From a virus, in IMG/VR virus record IMGVR_UViG_3300025648_000015, positions 1 through 64,000 of that record: DNA of 64,000 nt; one strand, 5' to 3'. The translations under genes were made by a program, and so were the position numbers. Positions within the stretch are counted from its first letter, which is position 1, and each line of letters opens with the position of its first letter. The notes beneath the pieces were generated by a model that saw only the letters and a program-made list of their open reading frames with translations, ran no database searches and was not told where the DNA came from. Of the stretch, positions 20,279 to 32,901 are shown one piece after another.

Positions 20279-23200
20279 ATGGCCCTCCCAGATTCCAGTG
20301 TAATACGATCATACCCTGGTGGTGCTGCACCTACGTATCTTTCAGCATCGCTTGACTATGCATTCGCAAGCGGACAAACAATAACTGTAGCTAATACCAC
20401 GGGATGGTATGAAGTTAGCGCAGGCGGATATAATACCACTAATCCACTAGGAACTAGTGGACCTTTTACGCTTGTTGTAGATTACGGTCTAGGCAGCGAA
20501 GAAAAGATACTGTGTGCTAGCGGTGCCATCTCACTTGGTGTTAATACCACTATTTTTGTTTATAACGTTAGTGGTACCAATGGCCGTGGCTATGACGGAA
20601 CAACTGCAACTTCGCACTCAGTAGGAACTTCTAGCGATTATAACGTATTCCCTGTTGCTACAGCTATTGAACAAGCTCAATTTAATCTTGCAGCAAGCAA
20701 ATTAGGCAATTCAACTTTAGTAGTATCAGGCACAACTGCTGGTGGAGATCTTGCTGGGACTTATCCTAATCCAACACTTAAAGCAATATACACTGGCGAC
20801 ACATTCTCTGGTGGTGGCGGAAGCTTCTTGCCAACATTTTCATGGGATAATGCTGGTCGTATAACTAATGTTTCAGGTATAAATATATTTATTCCAACAA
20901 GTGCAGTAAGTGGATTGAATACGACTATTAGTGGTTTACAGACCCAAATTAACACTAATGGTACAAACATTAGTACACAGAGTGGGCAAATAAATACATT
21001 ATTTGCAACAACTAGCGGTCAAGCTTCAAGCATAGCTACACAAAGTGGACAAATTAATTCATTGTTTATAACAACTAGTGGTAACTCTACAGACATTAAC
21101 AATCAAGCTGCAGCCATTAGCGGTTTAAATACACAAGTAAGCGATTTAAACAATTCTACTACCTCAGGATTTGCTAGTGTAAATACACAAATATCAGGAC
21201 TCAATGTAGTAGTTAGTGGTCAAGCCAATACTCTTGCTACTGAAGCAAACAACATTGCTGTCCTTAGTGGTCAATACGTAACTCTTTCAGGTAACTTAGT
21301 TACTACTAACTCTAATGTTGCCAACCTCAGTGGCCAATTCGCATCACTTTCTGGTTCATATAATACCACGTCAGGAATCGTAACTAACCAAACTGGATAC
21401 ATTGCCACACTTAGTGGTCAAATGATCACTGCTAATAACGGTATATCAACTAACGCTGCAAACCTTGCCACGTTATCTGGTCAATATACTACTACTAGTG
21501 GAATTGTTACCAACCACACTTCATACATTGCAACAATTTCTGGTAAACAAATTACTGATGAAAACAACATAGCAACACTTTCAGGAAACATTGTTACCAT
21601 TAGTGGAAAGCAAGTAACTGACGAAGCTAATATTGCTTCTCTTTCAGGGTCTCTTGTTACCCTAAGTGGTCAATTTGTAACTACTTCAGGAAGAACAATC
21701 TTCTCTGGCACTAATGCCGGTGGAGATTTAACTGGTACATACCCTAACCCAACTCTTAGAACAATTAGTGGTGTTAGTGGTACCTATGGATCTGCTACAC
21801 AAACTCCATTGCTTTCTATCGATTCAAATGGTCGTGTTACTAATGCACAACTTTACACAATCCAGATTGCTGAAAACCAAGTAAACAACCTAACAACAGA
21901 TATGACTAGCATATCTGGAAACATTGCTAGTGTATCTGGTAAACAAGCTACAGATGCTTCTAATATTGCATCGTTGTCAGGTAGTCTTGCTACTCTTTCA
22001 GGCCAGTATGTATCAACGAGTGGAATCGTCACTAATAACACTAGCTACATTGCTACCATATCGGGTAAGCAAATTACCGATGAGGCAAACATTGCATCAT
22101 TGAGTGGTTCTCTTGCAACGCTCAGTGGCCAATATGTTACCACTTCAGGTCTTGTTACAAATCAGGCTGGATACATATCTACAATATCTGGCAAACAGAT
22201 TGCTGATGAAGCTAATCTTGCCACACTATCTGGTCAATATGCTACAACTAGTGGCATTGTTACCAATAACACTGGTTATATTGCTACTATTTCAGGTAAG
22301 CAAGTCACCGACGAAGCTAATATTGCTTCATTGAGTGGCAGCCTTGCTACAGTTAGTGGAGTTGCTTATGCTGCCCTTCCTAGAACTGGTGGAACAATCA
22401 GTGGCAACCTTACAGTAACTGGAACACTAACTGCTGGTTCTTTAACTGTTAGTGGTGGTAATGTTCTAATTAGCGGTTCAACTGCCAATGGCGACCTTTC
22501 AGGCACCTATCCAGCCCCTACAGTGGCAAAGATCCAAGGAGTTGCTGTAAGCCCAACAACTCCAACTAATAACCAAGTTCTACGCTACAGCACTACATCT
22601 GGCACTTGGTATGCTGGTACGGGTAATGCTCTATTCCCAACTACTACTCAGAGTGGTAACTACACAGCAGTTCCCAATGATTATGTAGTATGTAATGCAA
22701 CTGCTGGTGCAATGACAGTCACTCTAACTAATGCTCCTGCAAACGGTTCAATAATTGCAGTTGCTAGCCAAGCTACAAGCACTTACAACGTTACTGTTGT
22801 AGCTAGCGGTAGCGACACGATTCCTGGTGGTTCTTTTGTCTTGGCAGGCAACGGAGTGTTTAACTCTGTTGAATTCTACTACGATGCTGGATTAGCTGAA
22901 TGGTTGATTGTAAGTAACCAATTCGGTGATGTTGCTGGTGGAGATCTTACCGGAACTTATCCTAACCCAACAGTTTCTTATCTTAATGGTGTCCCTGTAA
23001 GCCCTACACCTCCAAATACTGGTCAAGTTCTTGCATCAGTTGGTGGAGTGTGGACTCCAATCACGTCAAGTGGAATTGGAACACCTGGTCCTGGTGGAGC
23101 TAATGGTTACTATGGTGCCTTCTATGACACCACTAATCAAACTGCTACAAGCACTACAAGTGGAAACGTTCTAGCAATTGGTAGTACATTCTCTGCCAAT

Positions 23201-26200
23201 GGTATAACTAGATCGGCTAGTGGAACAATTACATTTGGTTATGCTGGTACTTATCTTATTGCTTATACAGTTCAACTAATTACATCTTCCAGTGCTTCTA
23301 GAAACGTAGATATTTGGTTCCGTAAAAATGGTGTTAATGTTCCAAATACGAATGCAACATTTGCAGTGCCAGCATCACCAACGCCAGGTGGCGGAAATGC
23401 TGTAACTGCTGCTGTAACACATATAATCGTTGCAAGTGGTAATGACAACTTCCAAATTATGTGGATGCCAACCAACACTGATACTACTGTTGAAACTATT
23501 GCCTCTGGCGCTAACTACCCAACTGCTCCTGGAGTATTTGTATCTGTTTCTCAAATCATGTACAACCAAACAGGTACATACACAGTTAACGCAGTCGCTG
23601 CTAGTGGTACTAATGCTACTACTGCAACTCCACTTACACTTAGTACATATGCTCCAATAACTGGTGCTACTGCTTCAGGTAACACAGCATCTGGTACAGG
23701 AGTTATTCTTCCTACGCCAACATATAACGGTCAATGGATGCAGATCCACAATGAAGACCTAACTCACTGGCTCCTTGTCTATCCACAACCAACAGCGTAT
23801 ATTGATAATGGTTCAACTGGTGCTCCTATTTGGTTACCACCAACTAGTTATTGGGAAGGTGTAGCTACAACTACCACTTCCTGGGATACTGCTATCCAAC
23901 CATTGACTAGTAACTCACTTGCTGTTAGTTACTTGGTTGTTCCTGGTCAAACAGACATTGAACTACAAACCTACGGTACTCCTGGTACATACGGTACTAC
24001 TAGTGGTATTCCAGTAATTACAACAGATACCTATGGTCGTTCGACTGTAACTGTAACTGGTGTACAAATTAACCAAAGTCAAGTAACTGGTCTTTCTGGA
24101 AACTTGTCAGCATTGAGTGGTTCAATAACTACAACCAGTAGCAACCTTGCAACGCTCAGTGGTCAATACGCCACAACATCAGGTATTGTTACAAACCAAA
24201 CTGGTTACATTGCAACCCTATCGGGTCAAATGGTTACTGCTAATAGTAACATTGCCTCTACAAGTGGATCGCTTGCAACCCTTTCTGGACAGTTTGTAGC
24301 CCTCTCAGGATCATACAGCACAACTAGTGGTAACCTAAATACTACTAATACCAATGTTGCTAATCTTAGTGGTCAATACGCCACTCTTAGTGGTCAATAT
24401 GCAGCTACTTCAGGAATTGTTACCAACCACACAAGTTACATTGCCGCTACTAGCGGTTCTCTTGCCACTCTTAGTGGTCAATTCGTAGCTCTTTCTGGTT
24501 CATATAATACCACTTCAGGAATTGTTACAAGCCAAACAAGTTATATTTCAACTTTGTCAGGACAAGTAGTAACACTTTCTGGTAGTGATGCTAACAAGCT
24601 TCCACTTAGCGGAGGAACCGTTACCGGTACTTTGAATGTTAATAGCCCATTCAATGTTAATGGAAACGTTAGCATTACTGGTACAGAAACTATTTCTGGT
24701 GCTCTAAACGTTAACTACACGATCAATGCTACAACGCCGACTAACAACCCACCAATCAACTTTGGTGGTGGACTAAGCTATTCTGATGTTAACACAATTG
24801 CTGGATTTAACACTAGCGTTAACAACTACAACCAGATTGTTCTACAAAATACTAACTCAGGTACTTCAGCTAGCACTAACTTAAACGTAAGTAACAACTT
24901 GGGAACAAGTGGTACTAACTATGGTGAGTTTGGTATGAACTCCAGTAATTTTACTGGTACTGGTGCGTTTAATACTGCAGGAGCAGTTTACCTTGCTTCA
25001 GCCTCTACAGACCTAGCTATCGGTACTTATGGTAACAATGCTATTCACTTTGTAACTAATAGTGCAACAGCTGATGCAATGACAATTACCAGTGGTGGGA
25101 ACGTCGTTGTCGGTAGTGGTTTGACTGTTAGTGGAACATTTACTCTTGCAACAGGTATCACTATATCAACTCCTATTGGTAACTATCCTATAGCAATTGG
25201 TTACCAAGCTGGTCAAACTGATAATGGTAATGGTGGTGTAGCAGTTGGTTACCAAGCTGGTCAAAGTAACAATAATTATGGTGTATCTTTAGGTTATCTT
25301 GCCGGACAAAATGGAAACAGCAAAGGTGTAGCAATTGGTGCTGCTGCTGGTCAAACAACTAACGCTTCAGGTATTGCAATTGGTTTCCAAGCTGCTGCAC
25401 TTGGTAACAACAATAGCATTGCAATTGGTTTTAATTCTCAAACTGGATCTAGTGGGTACGCAATAGCACTAGGTACTAGCAGCACAGCAAGTGCTTCAGG
25501 TTCTGTAGCAATTGGTATGAATGCAACTGCAACTGGAACAAACCAATTTGTTCTTGGTACATCAAACCATAACGTTCAAGTACCTGGTACCTTTGCTGTA
25601 AGTGGTTCTTTGACCGTAAGTGGTACTGCTGTAATGACCAGTGGTTCTGCAGTCGGTGGAGATCTTACTGGTACAATAGGTAATGCAAAAGTAACTAAGT
25701 TACAAGGTTACACAGTATCAAGCGGTGCACCTACTGCCAATGCAATGCTTGTTTACAGTGGTTCTCAATGGACCTCAGGTCCTGCTGTAAGCGGTACAAC
25801 TGGTACAGGTGGAATAATCCCTTACGCTACCAACCCATTGCTCGTAGCACCTCTAGAACAGGTTGTAGTTAGCTCTGGTGTAGTATCTTCAAGCGCTGCT
25901 GCTGTTCTCAACACCGTTTCTGGTGGAGTCTATGTCTACACTGCTGCTCCAACATCAGCATGGCAAATCCAAATAACCAATGCTCCAACTACTGTTGGTC
26001 AAGCCGTTACTGTCACTGTTGGTACAAATAATGGTTCTACAGCCTACCTCCCATCAGGGTTTACGATCAATGGTTACACTGTTAACGGTGGTACTACGCT
26101 ACCTGCCCATGGAACAGCATATACTAACACTTATACCGTGACAGCGTACTACCAAGGTGGTTCAATATGGACTGCTGCAGATGCAACAGTAAACTATGAT

Positions 26201-26272
26201 TTCTATGCTATTACATTAATATGTACAGCAGCTAATACGTATGTTATGCTACTCGGACAGACTAAGTTCTAA
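20279..26272 (+). CDS. Long trimeric fibre/adhesin (1997 aa)
   Basis: SG-containing heptad coiled coils; four GDLxGTYPxPT repeats plus one degenerate copy; BclA/C1q-like segment (YYGAFYDTT...GTYLIAYTVQL...IWFRKNG); YadA-head-like (V/I)A(I/V)G repeats near the C-terminus. Confidence 0.8.
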   Translation: MALPDSSVIRSYPGGAAPTYLSASLDYAFASGQTITVANTTGWYEVSAGGYNTTNPLGTSGPFTLVVDYGLGSEEKILCASGAISLGVNTTIFVYNVSGTNGRGYDGTTATSHSVGTSSDYNVFPVATAIEQAQFNLAASKLGNSTLVVSGTTAGGDLAGTYPNPTLKAIYTGDTFSGGGGSFLPTFSWDNAGRITNVSGINIFIPTSAVSGLNTTISGLQTQINTNGTNISTQSGQINTLFATTSGQASSIATQSGQINSLFITTSGNSTDINNQAAAISGLNTQVSDLNNSTTSGFASVNTQISGLNVVVSGQANTLATEANNIAVLSGQYVTLSGNLVTTNSNVANLSGQFASLSGSYNTTSGIVTNQTGYIATLSGQMITANNGISTNAANLATLSGQYTTTSGIVTNHTSYIATISGKQITDENNIATLSGNIVTISGKQVTDEANIASLSGSLVTLSGQFVTTSGRTIFSGTNAGGDLTGTYPNPTLRTISGVSGTYGSATQTPLLSIDSNGRVTNAQLYTIQIAENQVNNLTTDMTSISGNIASVSGKQATDASNIASLSGSLATLSGQYVSTSGIVTNNTSYIATISGKQITDEANIASLSGSLATLSGQYVTTSGLVTNQAGYISTISGKQIADEANLATLSGQYATTSGIVTNNTGYIATISGKQVTDEANIASLSGSLATVSGVAYAALPRTGGTISGNLTVTGTLTAGSLTVSGGNVLISGSTANGDLSGTYPAPTVAKIQGVAVSPTTPTNNQVLRYSTTSGTWYAGTGNALFPTTTQSGNYTAVPNDYVVCNATAGAMTVTLTNAPANGSIIAVASQATSTYNVTVVASGSDTIPGGSFVLAGNGVFNSVEFYYDAGLAEWLIVSNQFGDVAGGDLTGTYPNPTVSYLNGVPVSPTPPNTGQVLASVGGVWTPITSSGIGTPGPGGANGYYGAFYDTTNQTATSTTSGNVLAIGSTFSANGITRSASGTITFGYAGTYLIAYTVQLITSSSASRNVDIWFRKNGVNVPNTNATFAVPASPTPGGGNAVTAAVTHIIVASGNDNFQIMWMPTNTDTTVETIASGANYPTAPGVFVSVSQIMYNQTGTYTVNAVAASGTNATTATPLTLSTYAPITGATASGNTASGTGVILPTPTYNGQWMQIHNEDLTHWLLVYPQPTAYIDNGSTGAPIWLPPTSYWEGVATTTTSWDTAIQPLTSNSLAVSYLVVPGQTDIELQTYGTPGTYGTTSGIPVITTDTYGRSTVTVTGVQINQSQVTGLSGNLSALSGSITTTSSNLATLSGQYATTSGIVTNQTGYIATLSGQMVTANSNIASTSGSLATLSGQFVALSGSYSTTSGNLNTTNTNVANLSGQYATLSGQYAATSGIVTNHTSYIAATSGSLATLSGQFVALSGSYNTTSGIVTSQTSYISTLSGQVVTLSGSDANKLPLSGGTVTGTLNVNSPFNVNGNVSITGTETISGALNVNYTINATTPTNNPPINFGGGLSYSDVNTIAGFNTSVNNYNQIVLQNTNSGTSASTNLNVSNNLGTSGTNYGEFGMNSSNFTGTGAFNTAGAVYLASASTDLAIGTYGNNAIHFVTNSATADAMTITSGGNVVVGSGLTVSGTFTLATGITISTPIGNYPIAIGYQAGQTDNGNGGVAVGYQAGQSNNNYGVSLGYLAGQNGNSKGVAIGAAAGQTTNASGIAIGFQAAALGNNNSIAIGFNSQTGSSGYAIALGTSSTASASGSVAIGMNATATGTNQFVLGTSNHNVQVPGTFAVSGSLTVSGTAVMTSGSAVGGDLTGTIGNAKVTKLQGYTVSSGAPTANAMLVYSGSQWTSGPAVSGTTGTGGIIPYATNPLLVAPLEQVVVSSGVVSSSAAAVLNTVSGGVYVYTAAPTSAWQIQITNAPTTVGQAVTVTVGTNNGSTAYLPSGFTINGYTVNGGTTLPAHGTAYTNTYTVTAYYQGGSIWTAADATVNYDFYAITLICTAANTYVMLLGQTKF

Positions 26273-26297
26273 TGTTATTATTGGAGATTAATTTCTA

Positions 26298-27425
26298 ATG
26301 CCATTATTCTCATCGTTAAGTGACCTTGCCGCTCGTGCTTATGGACTCCTATCAGGATCTTTAGCACCTATTAGCGACCTGTTTGCAAGAACAACATCAG
26401 GATCATTAGGAACAGCAACATCAGGACAACTTTGGGTTGCACAAACTGGTGTATGGTATGCAACGAGCGGATCAGCTACCACATCAACAGCAGCTAGTTC
26501 TTACCCATTAGCTACAATACCTTACAAAGCTAGTGCAACAATGACGTTGAAGAGTGCTTCAAACGGTACTGGAATTGCTTTTTGGTGGACAAGTACTGGT
26601 AACTGGTGGGCAGTTGTTAACAATGCTTACTCACAAAATAACATAACAAGCTATACCTGTACTGGTGGATATCCTTGCACAGGTTATACATGCGCAGGCT
26701 ATGGACCAGTGTGTCAAAGCTATTACACTGTTTGTACAGGTTATGGTTACAGCAGTGCTTATGGTGATCCAAATGCTAAGGGAGCAACTACAACGTTGCC
26801 TAAGCGAAAGCGTCGTACAAAAGAAGATTCACCAAATACTCGACCCATTGATGTTCCAAAGCCGCAAAACCTTAGTTACGCACCAATTCCACCACCATTC
26901 TTCCCACCCTTCTTTCCGCCTTTCTTCCCACCCTTTTTCCCACCATTCTTTCCACCTTTCTTTCCTCCATTCTTTCCACCGTTCTTTCCTCCGTTCTTTC
27001 CACCGTATTTCCCACCGTGCATAAGTTATGGATTAGCTTGTGGAGGATACGCTACAGGATGTACATCATATTCTTGCTCTTCTTATGGTGCTTGCGCTGG
27101 ATACACAGCCAACTACACAACACAGTACTATAACCAGCTAAGCTTGCTACAATCTGTAGGTGGTACAATCACTACAATTGCAACAGGAGTTCTACAAGGG
27201 CCTTCAAATAGCACAACAGCTCAGATTAACTCTATCCAAATCGTTACCACTAATAGCAACATTACAGCAACTGCCTTTAGTGATTCTGCATTGGTAACAT
27301 CTCTGGGAACTTTGTCTAGCAATCAGACTGCTCCAACTGGTAATGTTAGTGTTGGTATTATTGATTCACCGGTTGGCGGAAGTGCCACCCAAGGTAGTAC
27401 TGTAGGACCATTTACAGCGTTATAA
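26298..27425 (+). CDS. Putative fibre-tip/receptor-binding protein with mirrored Cys ladder and (PPFF)9 insert
   Basis: Beta-rich N- and C-terminal halves interrupted by a 10-Cys, KRKRR and PPFF insert; directly after the fibre gene. Confidence 0.6.
   Translation: MPLFSSLSDLAARAYGLLSGSLAPISDLFARTTSGSLGTATSGQLWVAQTGVWYATSGSATTSTAASSYPLATIPYKASATMTLKSASNGTGIAFWWTSTGNWWAVVNNAYSQNNITSYTCTGGYPCTGYTCAGYGPVCQSYYTVCTGYGYSSAYGDPNAKGATTTLPKRKRRTKEDSPNTRPIDVPKPQNLSYAPIPPPFFPPFFPPFFPPFFPPFFPPFFPPFFPPFFPPFFPPYFPPCISYGLACGGYATGCTSYSCSSYGACAGYTANYTTQYYNQLSLLQSVGGTITTIATGVLQGPSNSTTAQINSIQIVTTNSNITATAFSDSALVTSLGTLSSNQTAPTGNVSVGIIDSPVGGSATQGSTVGPFTAL
26892..27011 (+). repeat. Coding tandem repeat: 9 x PPFF + PPYF (12-bp units)
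   Basis: All ten 12-bp units differ at the DNA level; the nine PPFF units differ only at synonymous positions. Confidence 0.95.
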
Positions 27426-27441
27426 TTAATAGAAAGAGACC

Positions 27442-27681
27442 ATGACAAACAAAGAAGAAAACCTAAATAATACGCCTCCTATGTATCGGATTGCTTTTAT
27501 TCTTGATGGTTTTGTACAAGAAGTAATTGAATGCTCAGAGAGATTTGCAGCTTTATTACTAAGTAAGCCAATAGCAAGAAACATAACAGGACTTGACATA
27601 CCGGTAGGATTTCAGTATGATGTAGCTACCGATACTTTCACTGATTTTGATGGTGAAAGCCTAGAAAATAATAGGAGTTAA
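27442..27681 (+). CDS. Small fibre-associated protein, paralog 1
   Basis: RIAFILDG.V...C..R.AA...S.P...IT motif shared with the next ORF. Confidence 0.7.
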   Translation: MTNKEENLNNTPPMYRIAFILDGFVQEVIECSERFAALLLSKPIARNITGLDIPVGFQYDVATDTFTDFDGESLENNRS

Positions 27682-27682
27682 T

Positions 27683-27916
27683 ATGGCAATTCCAATCCCA
27701 GAAGATCCAATGATAGCTATCAATACTACTAACCGTTTGGCATTTATCCTTGATGGTCAAGTAGTTCATGTTCAAAGTTGCAGTGCTAGAAATGCAGCAA
27801 TTATGACAAGCCAACCAATAGTAATTGATATTACAGATCATGAACGCGGCGCTTTTATCCAAGTTGGTCTTGGTTACGATGAAGAAGCCGGTGAATTTGC
27901 GAGTGAATACCGTTAA
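27683..27916 (+). CDS. Small fibre-associated protein, paralog 2
   Basis: RLAFILDGQV...CSARNAAIMTSQP; AGGAG RBS. Confidence 0.7.
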   Translation: MAIPIPEDPMIAINTTNRLAFILDGQVVHVQSCSARNAAIMTSQPIVIDITDHERGAFIQVGLGYDEEAGEFASEYR

Positions 27917-27918
27917 AA

Positions 27919-28239
27919 ATGAACGGACAACCAAAGCAAACGCCTTGGGAATTATATTTAGAAAATCTAAAGAATACTTCCGAAGAAACATCTGAACAAC
28001 GCCCAGCTAGACCATGGGATCTATTCAATAAAAAAATTGGTAGAGTAGAAGACGAATTAGCTAGTGAACGCCTTGCAATTTGCAAAGATTGTCCACGCAT
28101 TCGTAAGTCATCCATGCTATGTAAAGAATGTGGTTGCTTTATGCCTGGAAAAGTAAAATTACCTAATGCATTCTGTCCAATAGGTAAATGGCAAGCCGTT
28201 GAACAAGAACTAGAGGTTAATGAGGAAGACGAAGAGTAA
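27919..28239 (+). CDS. Cys-rich small protein (RxxxCxxC...CxxCGC...CPxxKW)
   Basis: RLAICKDC, CKECGCFM, CPIGKW; probable metal binder. Confidence 0.75.
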   Translation: MNGQPKQTPWELYLENLKNTSEETSEQRPARPWDLFNKKIGRVEDELASERLAICKDCPRIRKSSMLCKECGCFMPGKVKLPNAFCPIGKWQAVEQELEVNEEDEE

Positions 28240-28919
28240 TGTCGCGTCAAATCATAAAATACGAAAGTCGTAATGGTTTTATAGATCACATGAGGCCTAT
28301 GCTTTCCGTTGTACCTGATTGGTACAAAAAAACAAAAAGATGGGTAACTGACGAAAATGGTCAAGAATGGCCTGGAGTTAAACATTGCATCCCATTCCTT
28401 GAAAGCCTTACGCTCGGTTACACCATAGTTCTTGAAGAAAGTGTATATGTTCAAAGAACAGAAAACGGTGTAATTATACGTTATAATAATCCAAAAGAAC
28501 CTGTCGTTAACAATAGGCCAAGTGCAGTAACTGATCCATCACCAGTCCCAGAGGGATATGAAGATGAACATTTTATTTGGTTTGCTAACATAACTGTAAG
28601 ACCTCCTGATGGTTATTCATTACTTTACACACACCCATTGAATCGTTGGGATCTACCATTCTTAACAAGCAGTGCGGTGGTAGACGATTATGTAATGCCC
28701 GGTGCTAACATGTCTTTTTTTATTAAAAAAGGTTTTGAAGGTGAAATACCTAAAGGCACCCCTATAGCTCAAGTGATACCATTTAAAAGAGAAGAATGGG
28801 TAGCTAAATCTACAAAAGGTCTTTGGGACATAGCTGATACTACTGTGAAAGCTCCTATATCTGAGTTGTTGAATGGTCATTATAGAAAAAACTTCTGGAA
28901 GAAGAAGGTGTATAAATAA
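28239..28919 (+). CDS. dUTPase-like-fold protein (DUF6065-like), paralog 1
   Basis: KHCIPFLES..GY, PDGYSLLYTHPLNR, IPKGTPIAQVIPFKREEW. Confidence 0.6.
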   Translation: MSRQIIKYESRNGFIDHMRPMLSVVPDWYKKTKRWVTDENGQEWPGVKHCIPFLESLTLGYTIVLEESVYVQRTENGVIIRYNNPKEPVVNNRPSAVTDPSPVPEGYEDEHFIWFANITVRPPDGYSLLYTHPLNRWDLPFLTSSAVVDDYVMPGANMSFFIKKGFEGEIPKGTPIAQVIPFKREEWVAKSTKGLWDIADTTVKAPISELLNGHYRKNFWKKKVYK

Positions 28920-29632
28920 TGTTTAAAAAGAATAATAAAAACGTACTTCATTATGAAGGCTCCCCAACCGTAGAAAAAAAGGGTATAGGAGCTATGGTTG
29001 AAATCGTACCTGATTGGTATAAAAAAACACCAAAGTTTTTAGATAATAAAGATCCAAATAACAATATGCCTGCTATGGGTCTTAAGATGTGTATACCATT
29101 CTTAGATGCTATGACAACTGGATTTTATATGTCTTTGCCACAAGAAGTTTATGTAGAGCAAACAGAGAATGGACCATCTATCCGTTGCAAACAACAACCA
29201 ATGCCAATTAGCAATAGACCTCCAATGACTACAGACCCAATGCCATCGCCAGCTGGTCATGATGAAGAGCATTTTATTTGGCAAACTCAGTATGCTTTCC
29301 ACCTTCCTGAAGGATATAGTGCAATTCTGACACACCCATTTAATAGGTTTGAACTACCATTTATAACATTTACTGGTATTGTAGACGGTGACTTTTTTAT
29401 GCATGGCGGCAATATACCTTTTAGTATTAAAAAAGGCTTTGAAGGAGTTATCCCTAAAGGTACTCCAATACTGCAAATTATACCATTCAAAAGAGAAGAC
29501 TGGGTAGCTAAAAAGAAAAAAGGAGTATGGAAAAGAAGCATGGAAAACCATCCCGAAAGAAGCTATGATTATCAAGTTGGTTGGTATAGAAAAAATATAT
29601 GGCGTAAAAAAACTTATAAGGTAGAAAGTTAA
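28919..29632 (+). CDS. dUTPase-like-fold protein (DUF6065-like), paralog 2
   Basis: KMCIPFLDA..GF, PEGYSAILTHPFNR, IPKGTPILQIIPFKREDW; clearly homologous to the preceding ORF. Confidence 0.6.
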   Translation: MFKKNNKNVLHYEGSPTVEKKGIGAMVEIVPDWYKKTPKFLDNKDPNNNMPAMGLKMCIPFLDAMTTGFYMSLPQEVYVEQTENGPSIRCKQQPMPISNRPPMTTDPMPSPAGHDEEHFIWQTQYAFHLPEGYSAILTHPFNRFELPFITFTGIVDGDFFMHGGNIPFSIKKGFEGVIPKGTPILQIIPFKREDWVAKKKKGVWKRSMENHPERSYDYQVGWYRKNIWRKKTYKVES

Positions 29633-29904
29633 TGTTTAAGAAAAACAAAATATATAATGAAAAGCGTCGTTGGAAAACAATGGTAATCCCTAAGAACGAT
29701 GAGAACCAAACAAGGTACCTTCGTTTTACGGAATCACGCACTGCAACAAGACTGTTCATAGAAAAAGACAAGAATTACAAATTTTATGTTGTCTCTAGAG
29801 GAACTAACCCAGGTAAAGTAAAAGTAGTCGGAATTGCAACAGACATAAAGAGTGCTATCACATTATCTAACCTTGAATTGGAAAAAATCAATAAAGGTGA
29901 ATAA
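29632..29904 (+). CDS. Basic hypothetical protein
   Basis: 90-aa ORF, TAATG-coupled on both sides. Confidence 0.6.
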   Translation: MFKKNKIYNEKRRWKTMVIPKNDENQTRYLRFTESRTATRLFIEKDKNYKFYVVSRGTNPGKVKVVGIATDIKSAITLSNLELEKINKGE

Positions 29905-30608
29905 TGATTTATTCACCTGATAATAACTTTTTATTGTTAAAAAATTATAAAGTTGGTGGGAGCTCATTAGAAATAGCGTTGACCAATATAGTTCCAGAAA
30001 ATGCTACTTGCACAGAACTTAAACCTTCAGAGTATGGTCATATGCCAAGAAACCATATATATGATAATATTGAACTAGAAAACCATGCTTCATATTATGA
30101 TATATGTGATATATTCGGTGAAGAAAAAATAAATAATACAATTTCTGTTGTCTTTGTAAGACACCCATATGAGATTGTAGCTTCATGGTATTTTCATAAA
30201 ATGAAAGAATATTGGGGAGAAAAAACCAATGATAATGCTGACCCATTTGAATATGGTGGCGGTTATGACTGGGATGCGTTATCTCTAAAACAAAAAGATT
30301 ATTTAAATAAAATGTTTTTCTATGGAAAAGAAACAGATTTTCGTTCTATTAATAGTACAAAATGGATATATGCACCAAATGGTGAAATACTAGTTGATCA
30401 TGTTCTACGATATGAGAATGGAATAGAAAACGAAATAAATAAAATTTTACCAATGGTTGGGCTGCCAAAGATTACAATACCTTACAAAGCAAAAAGCAAA
30501 TACAAACCACAACATATTACCTATAAAAATATGTTTGGCAAACAAGAACTTGAAACTATACAAAAAGAATGGTCTTGGGAATTTGAAATCTTTGGTTATG
30601 AGCCTTAA
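29904..30608 (+). CDS. Sulfotransferase family protein (PAPS-dependent)
   Basis: 5'-PSB-like KVGGSS and 3'-PB-like VRHPYEIVASWY; C-terminal E..FGY ending typical of Sulfotransfer_2 proteins. Confidence 0.7.
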   Translation: MIYSPDNNFLLLKNYKVGGSSLEIALTNIVPENATCTELKPSEYGHMPRNHIYDNIELENHASYYDICDIFGEEKINNTISVVFVRHPYEIVASWYFHKMKEYWGEKTNDNADPFEYGGGYDWDALSLKQKDYLNKMFFYGKETDFRSINSTKWIYAPNGEILVDHVLRYENGIENEINKILPMVGLPKITIPYKAKSKYKPQHITYKNMFGKQELETIQKEWSWEFEIFGYEP

Positions 30609-31184
30609 ATGACACTAACTAAGGTTTGGAGCAAATACAATAATCCATTTAATTTTATTAACAAAGGCAACGTAGACGTTGGTAAAATTGCGGATTATTT
30701 GTTGAGCAAGAATGAAGATAAATACTTTGATGAACGGTTAAATATAATCCACCATCAACATGGTAAAATTCTAATAGTGCAAGATTACCCCAGGAATTGG
30801 TTCTATCCGGCACCTTTCACGCCAGAATTTGAATGTAAAGATAAAGAACTTTGGGCATTAACTAAACCAATAATCGATAAATTAGAAAAAGACTGCGATG
30901 GTAAAGCAGCTAAAATATTTTATTTCTTATTGCCAGCTGGAACCAATATCTATATTCATATGGATCTTGGACAATATTTTAGTGCTGTACATAGACATCA
31001 AATACCGATAATAACTAATCCTCAATGTGAAACATGGGTTGATGGCGAAACTATAAACATGAAGCCAGGGGAAATCTGGGAGATAAATAATGTTAAACGC
31101 CATGCAGTTGATAACAATGGAACAACACCAAGGATTAATTTAGTTGTGGACATAATGCCTATGTGGGCTATAGAATCAAAATAG
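30609..31184 (+). CDS. Aspartyl/asparaginyl beta-hydroxylase-like 2OG-Fe(II) oxygenase
   Basis: IYIHMD, RHQIPIITNP, GEIWEINN..RHAVDN...PRINLVVD. Confidence 0.85.
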   Translation: MTLTKVWSKYNNPFNFINKGNVDVGKIADYLLSKNEDKYFDERLNIIHHQHGKILIVQDYPRNWFYPAPFTPEFECKDKELWALTKPIIDKLEKDCDGKAAKIFYFLLPAGTNIYIHMDLGQYFSAVHRHQIPIITNPQCETWVDGETINMKPGEIWEINNVKRHAVDNNGTTPRINLVVDIMPMWAIESK

Positions 31185-31194
31185 GAGACAAAAT

Positions 31195-31890
31195 ATGCTT
31201 AGAGAACAATTTGAATTGCCTTTAAATCAAAAAGCATATGATGACGGCTTTTACGAGTTTCGTGGATTGCAAATAGCCATTGGTGAGGGTGTTTATGCAG
31301 AGGCTTATGGAATTGATGTGTTTTTTGAGAACATGTTACTTTTTGTAAAAGAAAAGATTAATTCATTAGAAGGCCTTACCATAATAGACATGTGTGCTGG
31401 ATCAGGCATGCTCGGCATAGCAATGGCAATAGAATTCCCCAATTCAGTAATTTATGGTGTAGAGAAATATGAAAAGCCATTTTTTTGGACTACAAAGAAT
31501 GCAGATGGTTTTAAAGAGCAAATAAATAAAAGCAATTCTAAATTCATTCCAGTGATGTGTAGTGCTCTTGATTCAATTGATAATCTTAAACATCTTCATG
31601 GTCAGGTCGATTTTATTCTTGCAGGTTATCCATGCATACCCATCCCAGATGACCTTTCAAAAGTGGATACTCTCCCTTACGATCTAACATCAGTAGCTGG
31701 TGGCGAAGACGGGTTAGATGTTATAAAAGAAATTTTAACCGCATCATCTATTCTTCTAAAAAAAGGTGGAATTTTAGTAACAACTACTCCAGTAAGAATG
31801 TTTAAACATGTAGAACCATTGCTTGATGACTCAGTGTGGAGCGAAACATTTGAATCACCTCTTGAGTTCATGGTTACAGTTAAAAAATAA
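31195..31890 (+). CDS. HemK/PrmC-like SAM-dependent methyltransferase (divergent)
   Basis: IDMCAGSG motif I and AGGEDGLDVIKEIL. The canonical NPPY is replaced by GYPC. Confidence 0.75.
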   Translation: MLREQFELPLNQKAYDDGFYEFRGLQIAIGEGVYAEAYGIDVFFENMLLFVKEKINSLEGLTIIDMCAGSGMLGIAMAIEFPNSVIYGVEKYEKPFFWTTKNADGFKEQINKSNSKFIPVMCSALDSIDNLKHLHGQVDFILAGYPCIPIPDDLSKVDTLPYDLTSVAGGEDGLDVIKEILTASSILLKKGGILVTTTPVRMFKHVEPLLDDSVWSETFESPLEFMVTVKK

Positions 31891-31900
31891 AAGGTAAATC

Positions 31901-32482
31901 ATGGATGAAATAAAAAGAGAAATATTAGCACCAGGCATCATAAGCTATAGCAATGTAGGAGCAAATATTTCTAATATGGTTCCTGAATGGGAAGAGCATG
32001 TTAAAAATGGTTCTTTAAATTGGGCTCCACATTCTTATGTTGGAGAAAACATAAATGTTCCAGAAGTTAGAAAAGTAAAGCTTATGGGTATTTCCAATGA
32101 TGGTATAAACGAAATAATAGATAGTATAAGAGAACATTTTGATAATGCTTATAAAGCATACGTAGACGATTATTGTGAAAGGTATCGTACCAATACTATT
32201 GGATCTGATGCATACCAAATTCTAAAGTATGAAATAGGTCATCATTATAAAGCACATACTGATTGGGATCGTGGTGAGTGGTTTGAAAAAAGAACTTTTT
32301 CTTTAACACATTATCTTAACGATGATTACGAGGGTGGAGAAATTAATTATGTTGAATTTGGTTTAAAAATTAAACCAAAGAAGGGGCAATTGATTATTTT
32401 CCCTGCACACTTCCCTTATGCACACCAAGTAGAACCAGTTATCAGTGGAGTGCGCTGGGCAATAACAAAATTCTACCACTAA
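31901..32482 (+). CDS. Prolyl-4-hydroxylase-like 2OG-Fe(II) oxygenase
   Basis: YKAHTD, YLNDDYEGGE, IFPA, HQVEPVISGVRW (HxD...H triad plus 2OG-binding Arg). Confidence 0.85.
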   Translation: MDEIKREILAPGIISYSNVGANISNMVPEWEEHVKNGSLNWAPHSYVGENINVPEVRKVKLMGISNDGINEIIDSIREHFDNAYKAYVDDYCERYRTNTIGSDAYQILKYEIGHHYKAHTDWDRGEWFEKRTFSLTHYLNDDYEGGEINYVEFGLKIKPKKGQLIIFPAHFPYAHQVEPVISGVRWAITKFYH

Positions 32483-32901
32483 TGATTATCCAGATTATTG
32501 GGCTTCCTGGATCAGGTAAGACCGCCCTAGCAAATGGTTTAAAAGAAAAAATACCTGTAATTCATTTAAATGCTGATGAGGTTAGGGCAACAATCAATTC
32601 AGATCTTGGGTTCTCAAACGATGACAGGGTTGAACAAGCACGCAGGCTTGGTGAGATGGCAAGACTTTTAGAACGCCAAGGTCATAACATAATTGTGGAT
32701 TTTGTTTGCCCTACGGAAGAGGCAAGAGAGGCTTTTGGCAAACCAGACATTCTTATCTGGATGGACCGTATCAAAAAAAGCCGTTTTGAGGACACCAATA
32801 CCCTTTGGCAAGACCCAATAAATTACGTTGATTTTATAATCAAAAATGGCTTAACCGTTGAACAAGAAGTAGATTGCATCATTAGTAAATACGGCCTTTA
32901 G
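32482..32901 (+). CDS. cysC: Adenylyl-sulfate (APS) kinase-like P-loop protein
   Basis: GLPGSGKT, NADEVR, LGFSNDDRVEQARR. Shorter than canonical CysC. Confidence 0.65.
   Translation: MIIQIIGLPGSGKTALANGLKEKIPVIHLNADEVRATINSDLGFSNDDRVEQARRLGEMARLLERQGHNIIVDFVCPTEEAREAFGKPDILIWMDRIKKSRFEDTNTLWQDPINYVDFIIKNGLTVEQEVDCIISKYGL

Follow-up and report, generated by a model that had tools for sequence, protein, structure and literature searches.

We analysed a 64,000-nucleotide stretch of viral DNA (positions 1 to 64,000 of IMG/VR record IMGVR_UViG_3300025648_000015, hereafter the window) and found that one of its genes encodes a 375-residue protein, P0001, in which ten cysteines form two mirrored sets of five inside a long insert that interrupts a predicted beta-sandwich. 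We consider it rather probable that P0001 is an adhesin composed of a lectin-type body, a stalk with five rungs running from arm to arm, and a flexible tip. The coordinates of the gene, its parts and its neighbours are given in Table 1.

All ten cysteines of P0001 lie within residues 121-266, with spacings 6 5 7 7 |95| 7 7 5 6 (the bars enclose the central gap). A tyrosine stands three residues after nine of the ten cysteines and four residues after the first, C1. An earlier note on this DNA had described such a mirrored ladder, and each of its elements was found on translation: the spacings, the nine CxxY motifs, the KRKRR cluster and the (PPFF)9 repeat. The span that it gave, 26658-27095, is exact, with C1 beginning at nucleotide 26658 and C10 finishing at nucleotide 27095. 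When all spacings were shuffled, the chance of obtaining this mirror was p 0.003.

P0001 belongs to a family whose members conserve ~120 residues at the N-terminus and ~110 at the C-terminus, on either side of an insert that is highly variable in length and sequence. We found that the number of cysteines is even in 123 of 124 family representatives sharing at most 50% mutual identity (binomial 1e-35), in 65 of 69 unique patterns and in 50 of 51 IMG/VR loci. A bias towards even cysteine counts is accepted as a sign of disulfide bonds (PMC2823432). Spacing was mirrored at p<0.05 in 47 of 122 representatives; stricter nulls gave 42/125 and 35/125, against 6.2 expected (Fisher p 1e-38 and 1e-28), and mirrored spacing was about six times commoner across the representatives than chance would give. 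In 87 cases mirror order was the better fit and in 21 direct order was, and the largest gap was exactly central in 27 of 103 inserts, where 7.3 were expected.

The palindrome also survives changes in arm length, as the hairpin proposed in the earlier note would lead one to expect. With arms defined by splitting at the largest gap, the subfamily of P0001 includes inserts with 2+2, 3+3, 4+4, 5+5 and 9+9 cysteines, and up to 23+23 are found elsewhere in the family. A compensatory change is seen in relative P0008, whose pattern is 5 5 7 7 |15| 7 7 5 5 where P0001 has 6 5 7 7 / 7 7 5 6, and the latter pattern is retained in the close relative L081 despite an altered loop length. The distant relative P0250 reads 3 5 5 5 5 5 7 7 5 12 |10| 12 5 7 7 5 5 5 5 10 2, and long cysteine-free spacers face each other in P0187 (49 and 48 residues) and P0244 (46 and 45 residues). 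Together, even parity, the mirror statistics and arms that change in step favour an out-and-back, two-armed stalk linked rung by rung. On the strength of these family statistics, we think it fairly likely that a cross-arm disulfide ladder joins two antiparallel arms.

The part of P0001 that carries the insert was predicted with high confidence. AlphaFold2 (AF2), run with the family alignment, placed both conserved halves in one beta-sandwich with a predicted local distance difference test score (pLDDT) above 90; residues 21-110 scored 89-97, and the first ~25 residues are conserved yet low in confidence. Invariant residues of the N-terminal half are W46, G51, G90 and W96 (alignment A1). In the model, a long strand (residues 103-121) runs out to C1 and another (269-287) returns from C10, and P0008 was predicted to have the same folded body with the same two long strands leading to its insert. 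Using VIA-align, we found that the best structural match is the carbohydrate-binding module (CBM) CBM66 4b1m (Z 16.1, root mean square deviation 2.7, 153 residues aligned), and that the C-terminal receptor-binding domain of TM4 gp23 (9n6a, Z 15.0) and the Douge baseplate BppU CBM (8zdo, Z 14.6) also match. The latter CBM binds mycobacterial surface glycans (PMC13033339). These alignments cover model residues 30-375, with 153-171 residues aligned, deviations of 2.7-4.1 and identities of 4-9%. Foldseek against the PDB gave weak matches to legume lectins (E 0.1), the fold being found by VIA-align instead. The model shows the two-sheet jelly roll of ~150-200 residues that marks the concanavalin A (ConA)-like lectin/glucanase fold, and P0001 has no match in Pfam, PHROG or NCBIfam (E up to 0.1-1), and hence none to a named CBM or lectin family there. 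The beta-sandwich body that the earlier note had envisaged is thus upheld by the prediction, and it appears to be a ConA-like sandwich of the carbohydrate-binding-module type with putative sugar binding.

Several observations weigh against a ladder of this kind in P0001. The chance of its mirror was p 0.03 when the centre gap was kept fixed and p 0.086 (1 in 12) when only the order inside arm 2 was shuffled. In the AF2 models the insert has pLDDT values of 41-59 in P0001 and 25-31 in P0008 (modelled with the subfamily alignment), and two short strands (142-149 and 241-248) are out of register with the cysteine pairs. The odd spacings of 5 and 7 would alternate hydrogen-bonded and non-hydrogen-bonded sites, which excludes a textbook beta-ribbon as the form of the stalk. 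Arm 2 of the close relative L082 reads 7 8 5 6, and a sizeable part of the family is unmirrored, being built of tandem four-cysteine modules such as (7 7 6 13)n and (16 1 ~12)n, as in L060; for these relatives local pairing is likelier than a ladder. In addition, the protein is synthesized in a reducing cytoplasm, and, as judged from the genes around it, its virion location and its attachment to a fibre are putative. As a single case, the mirror of P0001 is weakly significant (p 0.03-0.09), which is suggestive and not decisive; the family-wide statistics are decisive, and they make the case for the ladder beyond the single protein. The antiparallel hairpin with five disulfides proposed in the earlier note is therefore sustained in part: parity and mirror statistics support it, whereas its pairing from C1-C10 to C5-C6 is not seen in the models, in which the insert scores 25-59.

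Among other explanations, the one that survives best holds that disulfides are present and form no simple ladder, either because each arm is a knot or mini-hairpin and a further bond closes the loop, or because the bonds join different subunits. Direct tandem arrays do occur in relatives (L023, (7 7 6 13)n; P0069, (7 7 5 11)n; P0046, (2 3 5 10)n), and the '7 7 5' unit of arm 2 of P0001 recurs in them. Phage fibre proteins are usually trimers, which counts in favour of bonds between subunits. However, each arm of P0001 has five cysteines, an odd number that makes purely local pairing impossible. Moreover, a duplication would yield direct spacing, whereas mirror order wins 87 to 21 and the arms change in step. 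We regard this arrangement as unlikely.

The cysteines might instead bind metal between the arms, as zinc or Fe-S type clusters, with no disulfides at all. The reducing cytoplasm would suit such sites, four-cysteine relatives with patterns 7|13|7 and 7|17|7 could make a Cys4 site, and in many distant relatives a CxCxxC cap stands at each end of the insert. P0001, however, has no CxxC or histidine, its spacings of 5-7 are unlike those of zinc knuckles, and ten is not a multiple of four. Among the 124 representatives, cysteine counts that are multiples of four (67) and counts that leave two on division by four (56) are similarly common, and this lack of preference for four argues against Cys4 metal sites. 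Metal binding is in our judgement quite improbable.

We also considered that the insert is a fast-evolving, low-complexity linker of no fixed structure, whose parity and symmetry are by-products of repeat expansion. The low AF2 confidence, a composition that is 72% S/T/C/G/Y/N and length changes resembling repeat slippage fit this idea. Nevertheless, slippage of units with one cysteine (CTGYG-type, as in P0045 and P0023) should produce as many odd as even counts, whereas 123 of 124 representatives have an even one, and slippage yields direct order rather than mirror order, which leaves the linker very improbable. That KRKRR is a processing site, leaving a mature protein of two chains held by the ladder, as the earlier note had suggested, is scarcely probable: the basic cluster is kept in three close relatives and is exceptional among inserts in which charged residues make up ~4%, but no protease of matching specificity was identified, and a contact surface for anionic cell-wall polymers would account equally well for a basic patch beside an aromatic repeat.

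The loop between the two arms contains 30 prolines and 19 phenylalanines, arranged as a Gly/Tyr-rich start, the basic cluster and the Pro-Phe repeat. Its ten 12-nucleotide repeat units differ from one another at 16 third codon positions and at one first or second position, indicating that the Pro-Phe repeat is kept at the protein level. In most mirrored relatives the tip loop has 8-20 residues; the 94 residues of P0001 represent a clade-specific expansion. The near relatives L081 and L082, which were recovered through a search with the downstream DUF6171 gene (see below), keep the ladder, the basic cluster and a Pro-Phe/Tyr repeat. The distance from C5 to C6 is 95, 102 and 104 residues in P0001 and these two relatives, the number and variants of the repeats differ in both, and the basic cluster reads KRKRR, KRKRR and, in L082, RRKKRNR. 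A neighbouring gene of L081 is 98% identical, and L082 represents P0002, the closest database match of P0001, in its full length. The Pro-Phe knob of the earlier note could not be maintained as a folded one, the loop being cysteine-free, Pro/Phe-rich and basic, with pLDDT 41-48. The models suggest rather that the tip is a flexible or polyproline-like appendage.

A 2OG-FeII_Oxy_3 gene resembling prolyl 4-hydroxylase (P4H; 31901-32482) lies 4.5 kb downstream of this protein with its 40-residue Pro-Phe repeat. In chlorovirus PBCV-1 a viral P4H reportedly acts on proline-rich repeats, and the P4H-like oxygenase of the present phage may hydroxylate the Pro-Phe tip. Genes for P4H-like oxygenases were found in 26 of 80 loci related to that of P0001, with up to seven copies upstream in L069, L078 and L080.

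Inserts of other designs occur in the family. L023, an open reading frame (ORF) of 820 residues from 703, has 52 cysteines in about twelve direct repeats of a 33-residue four-cysteine module, 7 7 6 13. The same body here carries an insert of another kind, made of tandem modules. In many distant relatives (for example P0084, P0094, P0141 and P0187) the insert opens and closes with a CxCxxC cap ('2 3 ... 2 3'). These caps, which P0001 lacks, run in direct orientation and are not mirrored, and their six cysteines could form a separate cluster or knot at the base of the stalk. A 64.7-kb record, IMGVR_UViG_3300002301_000018 (L002, L007/L083), carries two divergent family copies, each after a fibre-like gene and each with 30 cysteines and many CC doublets.

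We found 134 proteins related to P0001 by word-index search and at least 214 relatives in IMG/VR. With profile A1 and 1.84 billion representatives, the family comprises 1257 clusters at E<=1e-3 and 346 at E<=1e-30 (clusters counted at 50% identity), and the window ORF scores E 2e-86 against this profile. P0001 has the traits of the family, namely conserved N- and C-terminal halves, an even number of cysteines confined to the insert, and a DUF6171-like gene downstream on the same strand. With blastn and tblastn, the gene had no match among 50,697 phage records. A scan of 185,579 cellular species genomes with profile A2 yielded a single relative, on a metagenome-assembled contig labelled Bacteroidetes, and neither a cultured host nor a prophage. 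BFVD holds six relatives, labelled 'uncultured Caudovirales phage'. The database entry P0002 (222 residues) terminates in CLLYTSPSPRD, a translation of the Nextera transposase adaptor, indicating that its contig is truncated by the adaptor and that its last 'cysteine' is an artefact. Literature searches on disulfide ladders in phages and on cysteine-rich fibres of actinophages found no description of this family or design. The family is thus large and unnamed, and both it and its proposed rung stalk are undescribed in the publications found.

Table 1. Features of the P0001 locus and its surroundings in the window
Feature	Position	Strand	Basis or remark
Repetitive fibre gene, 1997 aa	20279..26272	+	Last ~160 aa match phrog_5906
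Predicted lectin-fold Cys-ladder gene (P0001, 375 aa)	26298..27425	+	ORF and translation
N-terminal half of predicted beta-sandwich, aa 1-120	26298..26657	+	AF2, invariant residues
Arm 1: C121, C127, C132, C139, C146; spacings 6 5 7 7	26658..26735	+	Translation
Tip loop, 94 aa, Cys-free	26736..27017	+	AF2 pLDDT 41-48
KRKRR basic cluster, aa 169-173	26802..26816	+	Translation
(PPFF)9 + PPYF tandem repeat, 12-nt period	26892..27011	+	Tandem Repeats Finder (TRF)
Arm 2: C241, C248, C255, C260, C266; spacings 7 7 5 6	27018..27095	+	Translation
C-terminal half of predicted beta-sandwich, aa 267-375	27096..27422	+	AF2 pLDDT 87-98
Small gene, 79 aa, paralogue of the next	27442..27681	+	Relatives in 37/80 loci, beside the DUF6171 gene; no family match
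Small gene, 77 aa, paralogue of the previous	27683..27916	+	Relatives in 33/80 loci
DUF6171-like gene, 106 aa	27919..28239	+	PF19668, 26.8 bits; phrog_13558, E 1.5e-16
Two tandem phrog_7084 paralogues	28239-28919, 28919-29632		No Pfam match
Sulfotransfer_2	29904-30608		Pfam
Asp_Arg_Hydrox (AspH-like)	30609-31184		Pfam
2OG-FeII_Oxy_3 (P4H-like)	31901-32482		Pfam
Truncated P-loop protein resembling adenosine phosphosulfate (APS) kinase	32482-32901		Pfam

The gene for P0001 follows that of a long repetitive fibre after a gap of 25 nucleotides. In related loci the ORF directly upstream is rich in S/T/G, and in 29 of 32 of them it ends in a domain that shares homology with the final ~200 residues of the window fibre. 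The structural genes of the window include portal, sheath and Baseplate_J, in a myophage-like set, and the presence of WhiB and an Rpf-like transglycosylase gene together with ~40% GC indicates that the host is probably a low-GC freshwater actinobacterium. The pair of fibre and Cys-ladder genes sits between capsid and tail genes both in the window (20279-27425) and in the siphovirus-like L025 (8225-10864), the tail-side genes being sheath or major tail; this placement suggests that the fibre may be a neck or head appendage and not a baseplate fibre. Gene order is what points to the 'fibre-tip' role that the earlier note gave to the Cys-ladder protein, which we treat as putative. A complex prediction with the C-terminal 200 residues of the fibre (A3) and P0001 (A1) gave a score of 0.02, which speaks neither for nor against binding.

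Downstream, the most consistent neighbour is the DUF6171-like gene, which scores 26.8 bits against PF19668 with a cut-off of 27; the match to phrog_13558 and the DUF6171 Atlas clusters, at 0.93, point to the same assignment. It was found downstream in 76 of 80 Cys-ladder loci, usually beside the gene of ~79 residues. A reverse search starting from DUF6171 (564 IMG/VR relatives) showed that 72 of 77 new loci encode a member of the Cys-ladder family upstream, on the strand of the DUF6171 gene; among them are all 66 loci whose upstream DNA extends for 1.5 kb or more. DUF6171 proteins have six invariant cysteines (CxxC ... CxxCxC ... CP) and an invariant PWD motif, and they weakly resemble the zinc ribbon of bL32; from these sequence features the protein is probably a zinc ribbon. 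Our literature search on DUF6171 found no paper. The linkage of the two genes makes DUF6171 a candidate dedicated chaperone or maturation factor of the Cys-ladder protein.

Further downstream, phrog_7084 genes accompany the family in 30 of the 80 loci, often as a pair. The region 29904-32901 is more AT-rich (GC 0.35), and its genes are not conserved with the family beyond the closest relatives. The sulfotransferase, AspH-like and APS-kinase-like genes were rejected as dedicated modifiers, being present in just 0/80, 3/80 and 5/80 loci, respectively. We likewise rejected the idea that P0001 is a CXXX radical-SAM target (TIGR04114): P0001 gave no match, the distant P0030 reached 17.3 bits, below the cut-off of 20, and no radical-SAM domain was seen among the window ORFs scanned.

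The features of P0001 recall several known systems. CBM66 4b1m, TM4 gp23 9n6a and the Douge BppU CBM 8zdo share the fold of its predicted body, and the domains of 9n6a and 8zdo are carried on actinophage tails. P0001 differs in its long, cysteine-rich, two-armed insertion, of which we found no description for these three, whose structures were not inspected for one. Theta-defensins, tachyplesin and protegrin are cystine-ladder beta-hairpin peptides, with antiparallel arms and mirrored cysteines that result from cross-arm disulfides; they are free peptides of 16-18 residues with two or three rungs two residues apart. The likeness to P0001 lies in logic only, in the mirrored cysteine positions and the proposed cross-arm disulfides. 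P0001 would have five rungs, and its relatives up to 23, set 5-12 residues apart (5-7 in P0001) within a virion-type protein of 30-60 kDa, and at 375 residues it is neither a short free peptide nor a regular beta-ribbon with rungs two residues apart.

Bovine ultralong CDR-H3 loops (third complementarity-determining region of the antibody heavy chain) have a disulfide-free stalk and a knob that is a disulfide-rich mini-domain. P0001 is similar in that a long two-stranded projection with a variable tip would rise from a beta-sandwich. The analogy as drawn in the earlier note is nevertheless inverted: all cysteines of P0001 are in the stalk arms, and the tip is a cysteine-free, low-complexity segment rather than a folded knob. 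Granulin/epithelin, a secreted eukaryotic module with a fixed 12-cysteine motif, has near-palindromic cysteine spacing, produced by a stack with pseudo-two-fold symmetry that a rod of disulfides holds together. The spacing is comparable, and some relatives (P0023, P0020) have CC doublets; however, granulin is a stack of hairpins and not one long hairpin, and P0001 has no CC doublets. In lambda Stf/Tfa and T4 gp37/gp38, the gene of a receptor-binding protein is followed by that of a dedicated chaperone, and here too an adhesin-type gene is followed by a small conserved one (DUF6171, in 76/80 and 72/77 loci). The six-cysteine DUF6171 protein, probably a zinc ribbon, is unrelated to Tfa or gp38. 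The tentaclins, C-type lectins with a hypermutated hairpin (PMC10743442), offer a conceptual parallel only.

From these data we propose how the protein may be built and used. The gene product would be a structural, probably host-adhesion protein of a myophage that infects a low-GC freshwater actinobacterium. Its first ~120 and last ~110 residues are predicted to co-fold as a ConA-like sandwich, from which two neighbouring long strands would exit. The chain would then run out through arm 1 with its five cysteines, round the 94-residue tip loop and back through arm 2. On the family statistics, the antiparallel arms would most likely be stapled by C121-C266, C127-C260, C132-C255, C139-C248 and C146-C241, giving a stiff stalk, resistant to proteases and shear, that presents a flexible, basic, Pro/Phe-rich tip. 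Inspection by eye revealed no export signal at the N-terminus of P0001, for which no predictor was run, and oxidation would therefore presumably either follow lysis, in oxic water, or rely on a helper encoded by the phage. Conserved gene order suggests that the 1997-residue upstream fibre probably bears the protein at its distal end, and that the protein probably needs the downstream zinc-ribbon-like DUF6171 protein. The rapid evolution of stalk length and sequence, with pairing maintained, fits a host-contact element under diversifying selection.

A bolder version of this proposal, which we hold to be doubtful, is that the family represents a structural class so far unrecognised: a stalk displayed on a lectin-fold adhesin and adjustable in length, from 2 to more than 20 rungs, through repeat expansion in both arms together. 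On this view the dedicated, always co-inherited DUF6171 protein would mature the adhesin by assisting its folding or the oxidation of its thiols in the reducing cytoplasm, and in the present clade the tip would be a Pro-Phe rod, possibly hydroxylated by the phage P4H-like oxygenase. The ladder also raises the question of how a phage can assemble, in a protein synthesized in the cytoplasm, an ordered series of 5 to 23 disulfides, and the linked DUF6171 gene is a candidate for the answer. Very little is known of how the phages of freshwater Actinobacteria, which are abundant and mostly uncultured, recognise their hosts. With its 1257 clusters and its near absence from cellular genomes, the family looks like one of the main variable surface modules of these phages. 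If the ladder is real, it would be a natural, evolvable scaffold in which a rigid stalk of tunable length shows a variable tip on a lectin body, and it would be of interest for work on phage host range and for protein engineering.

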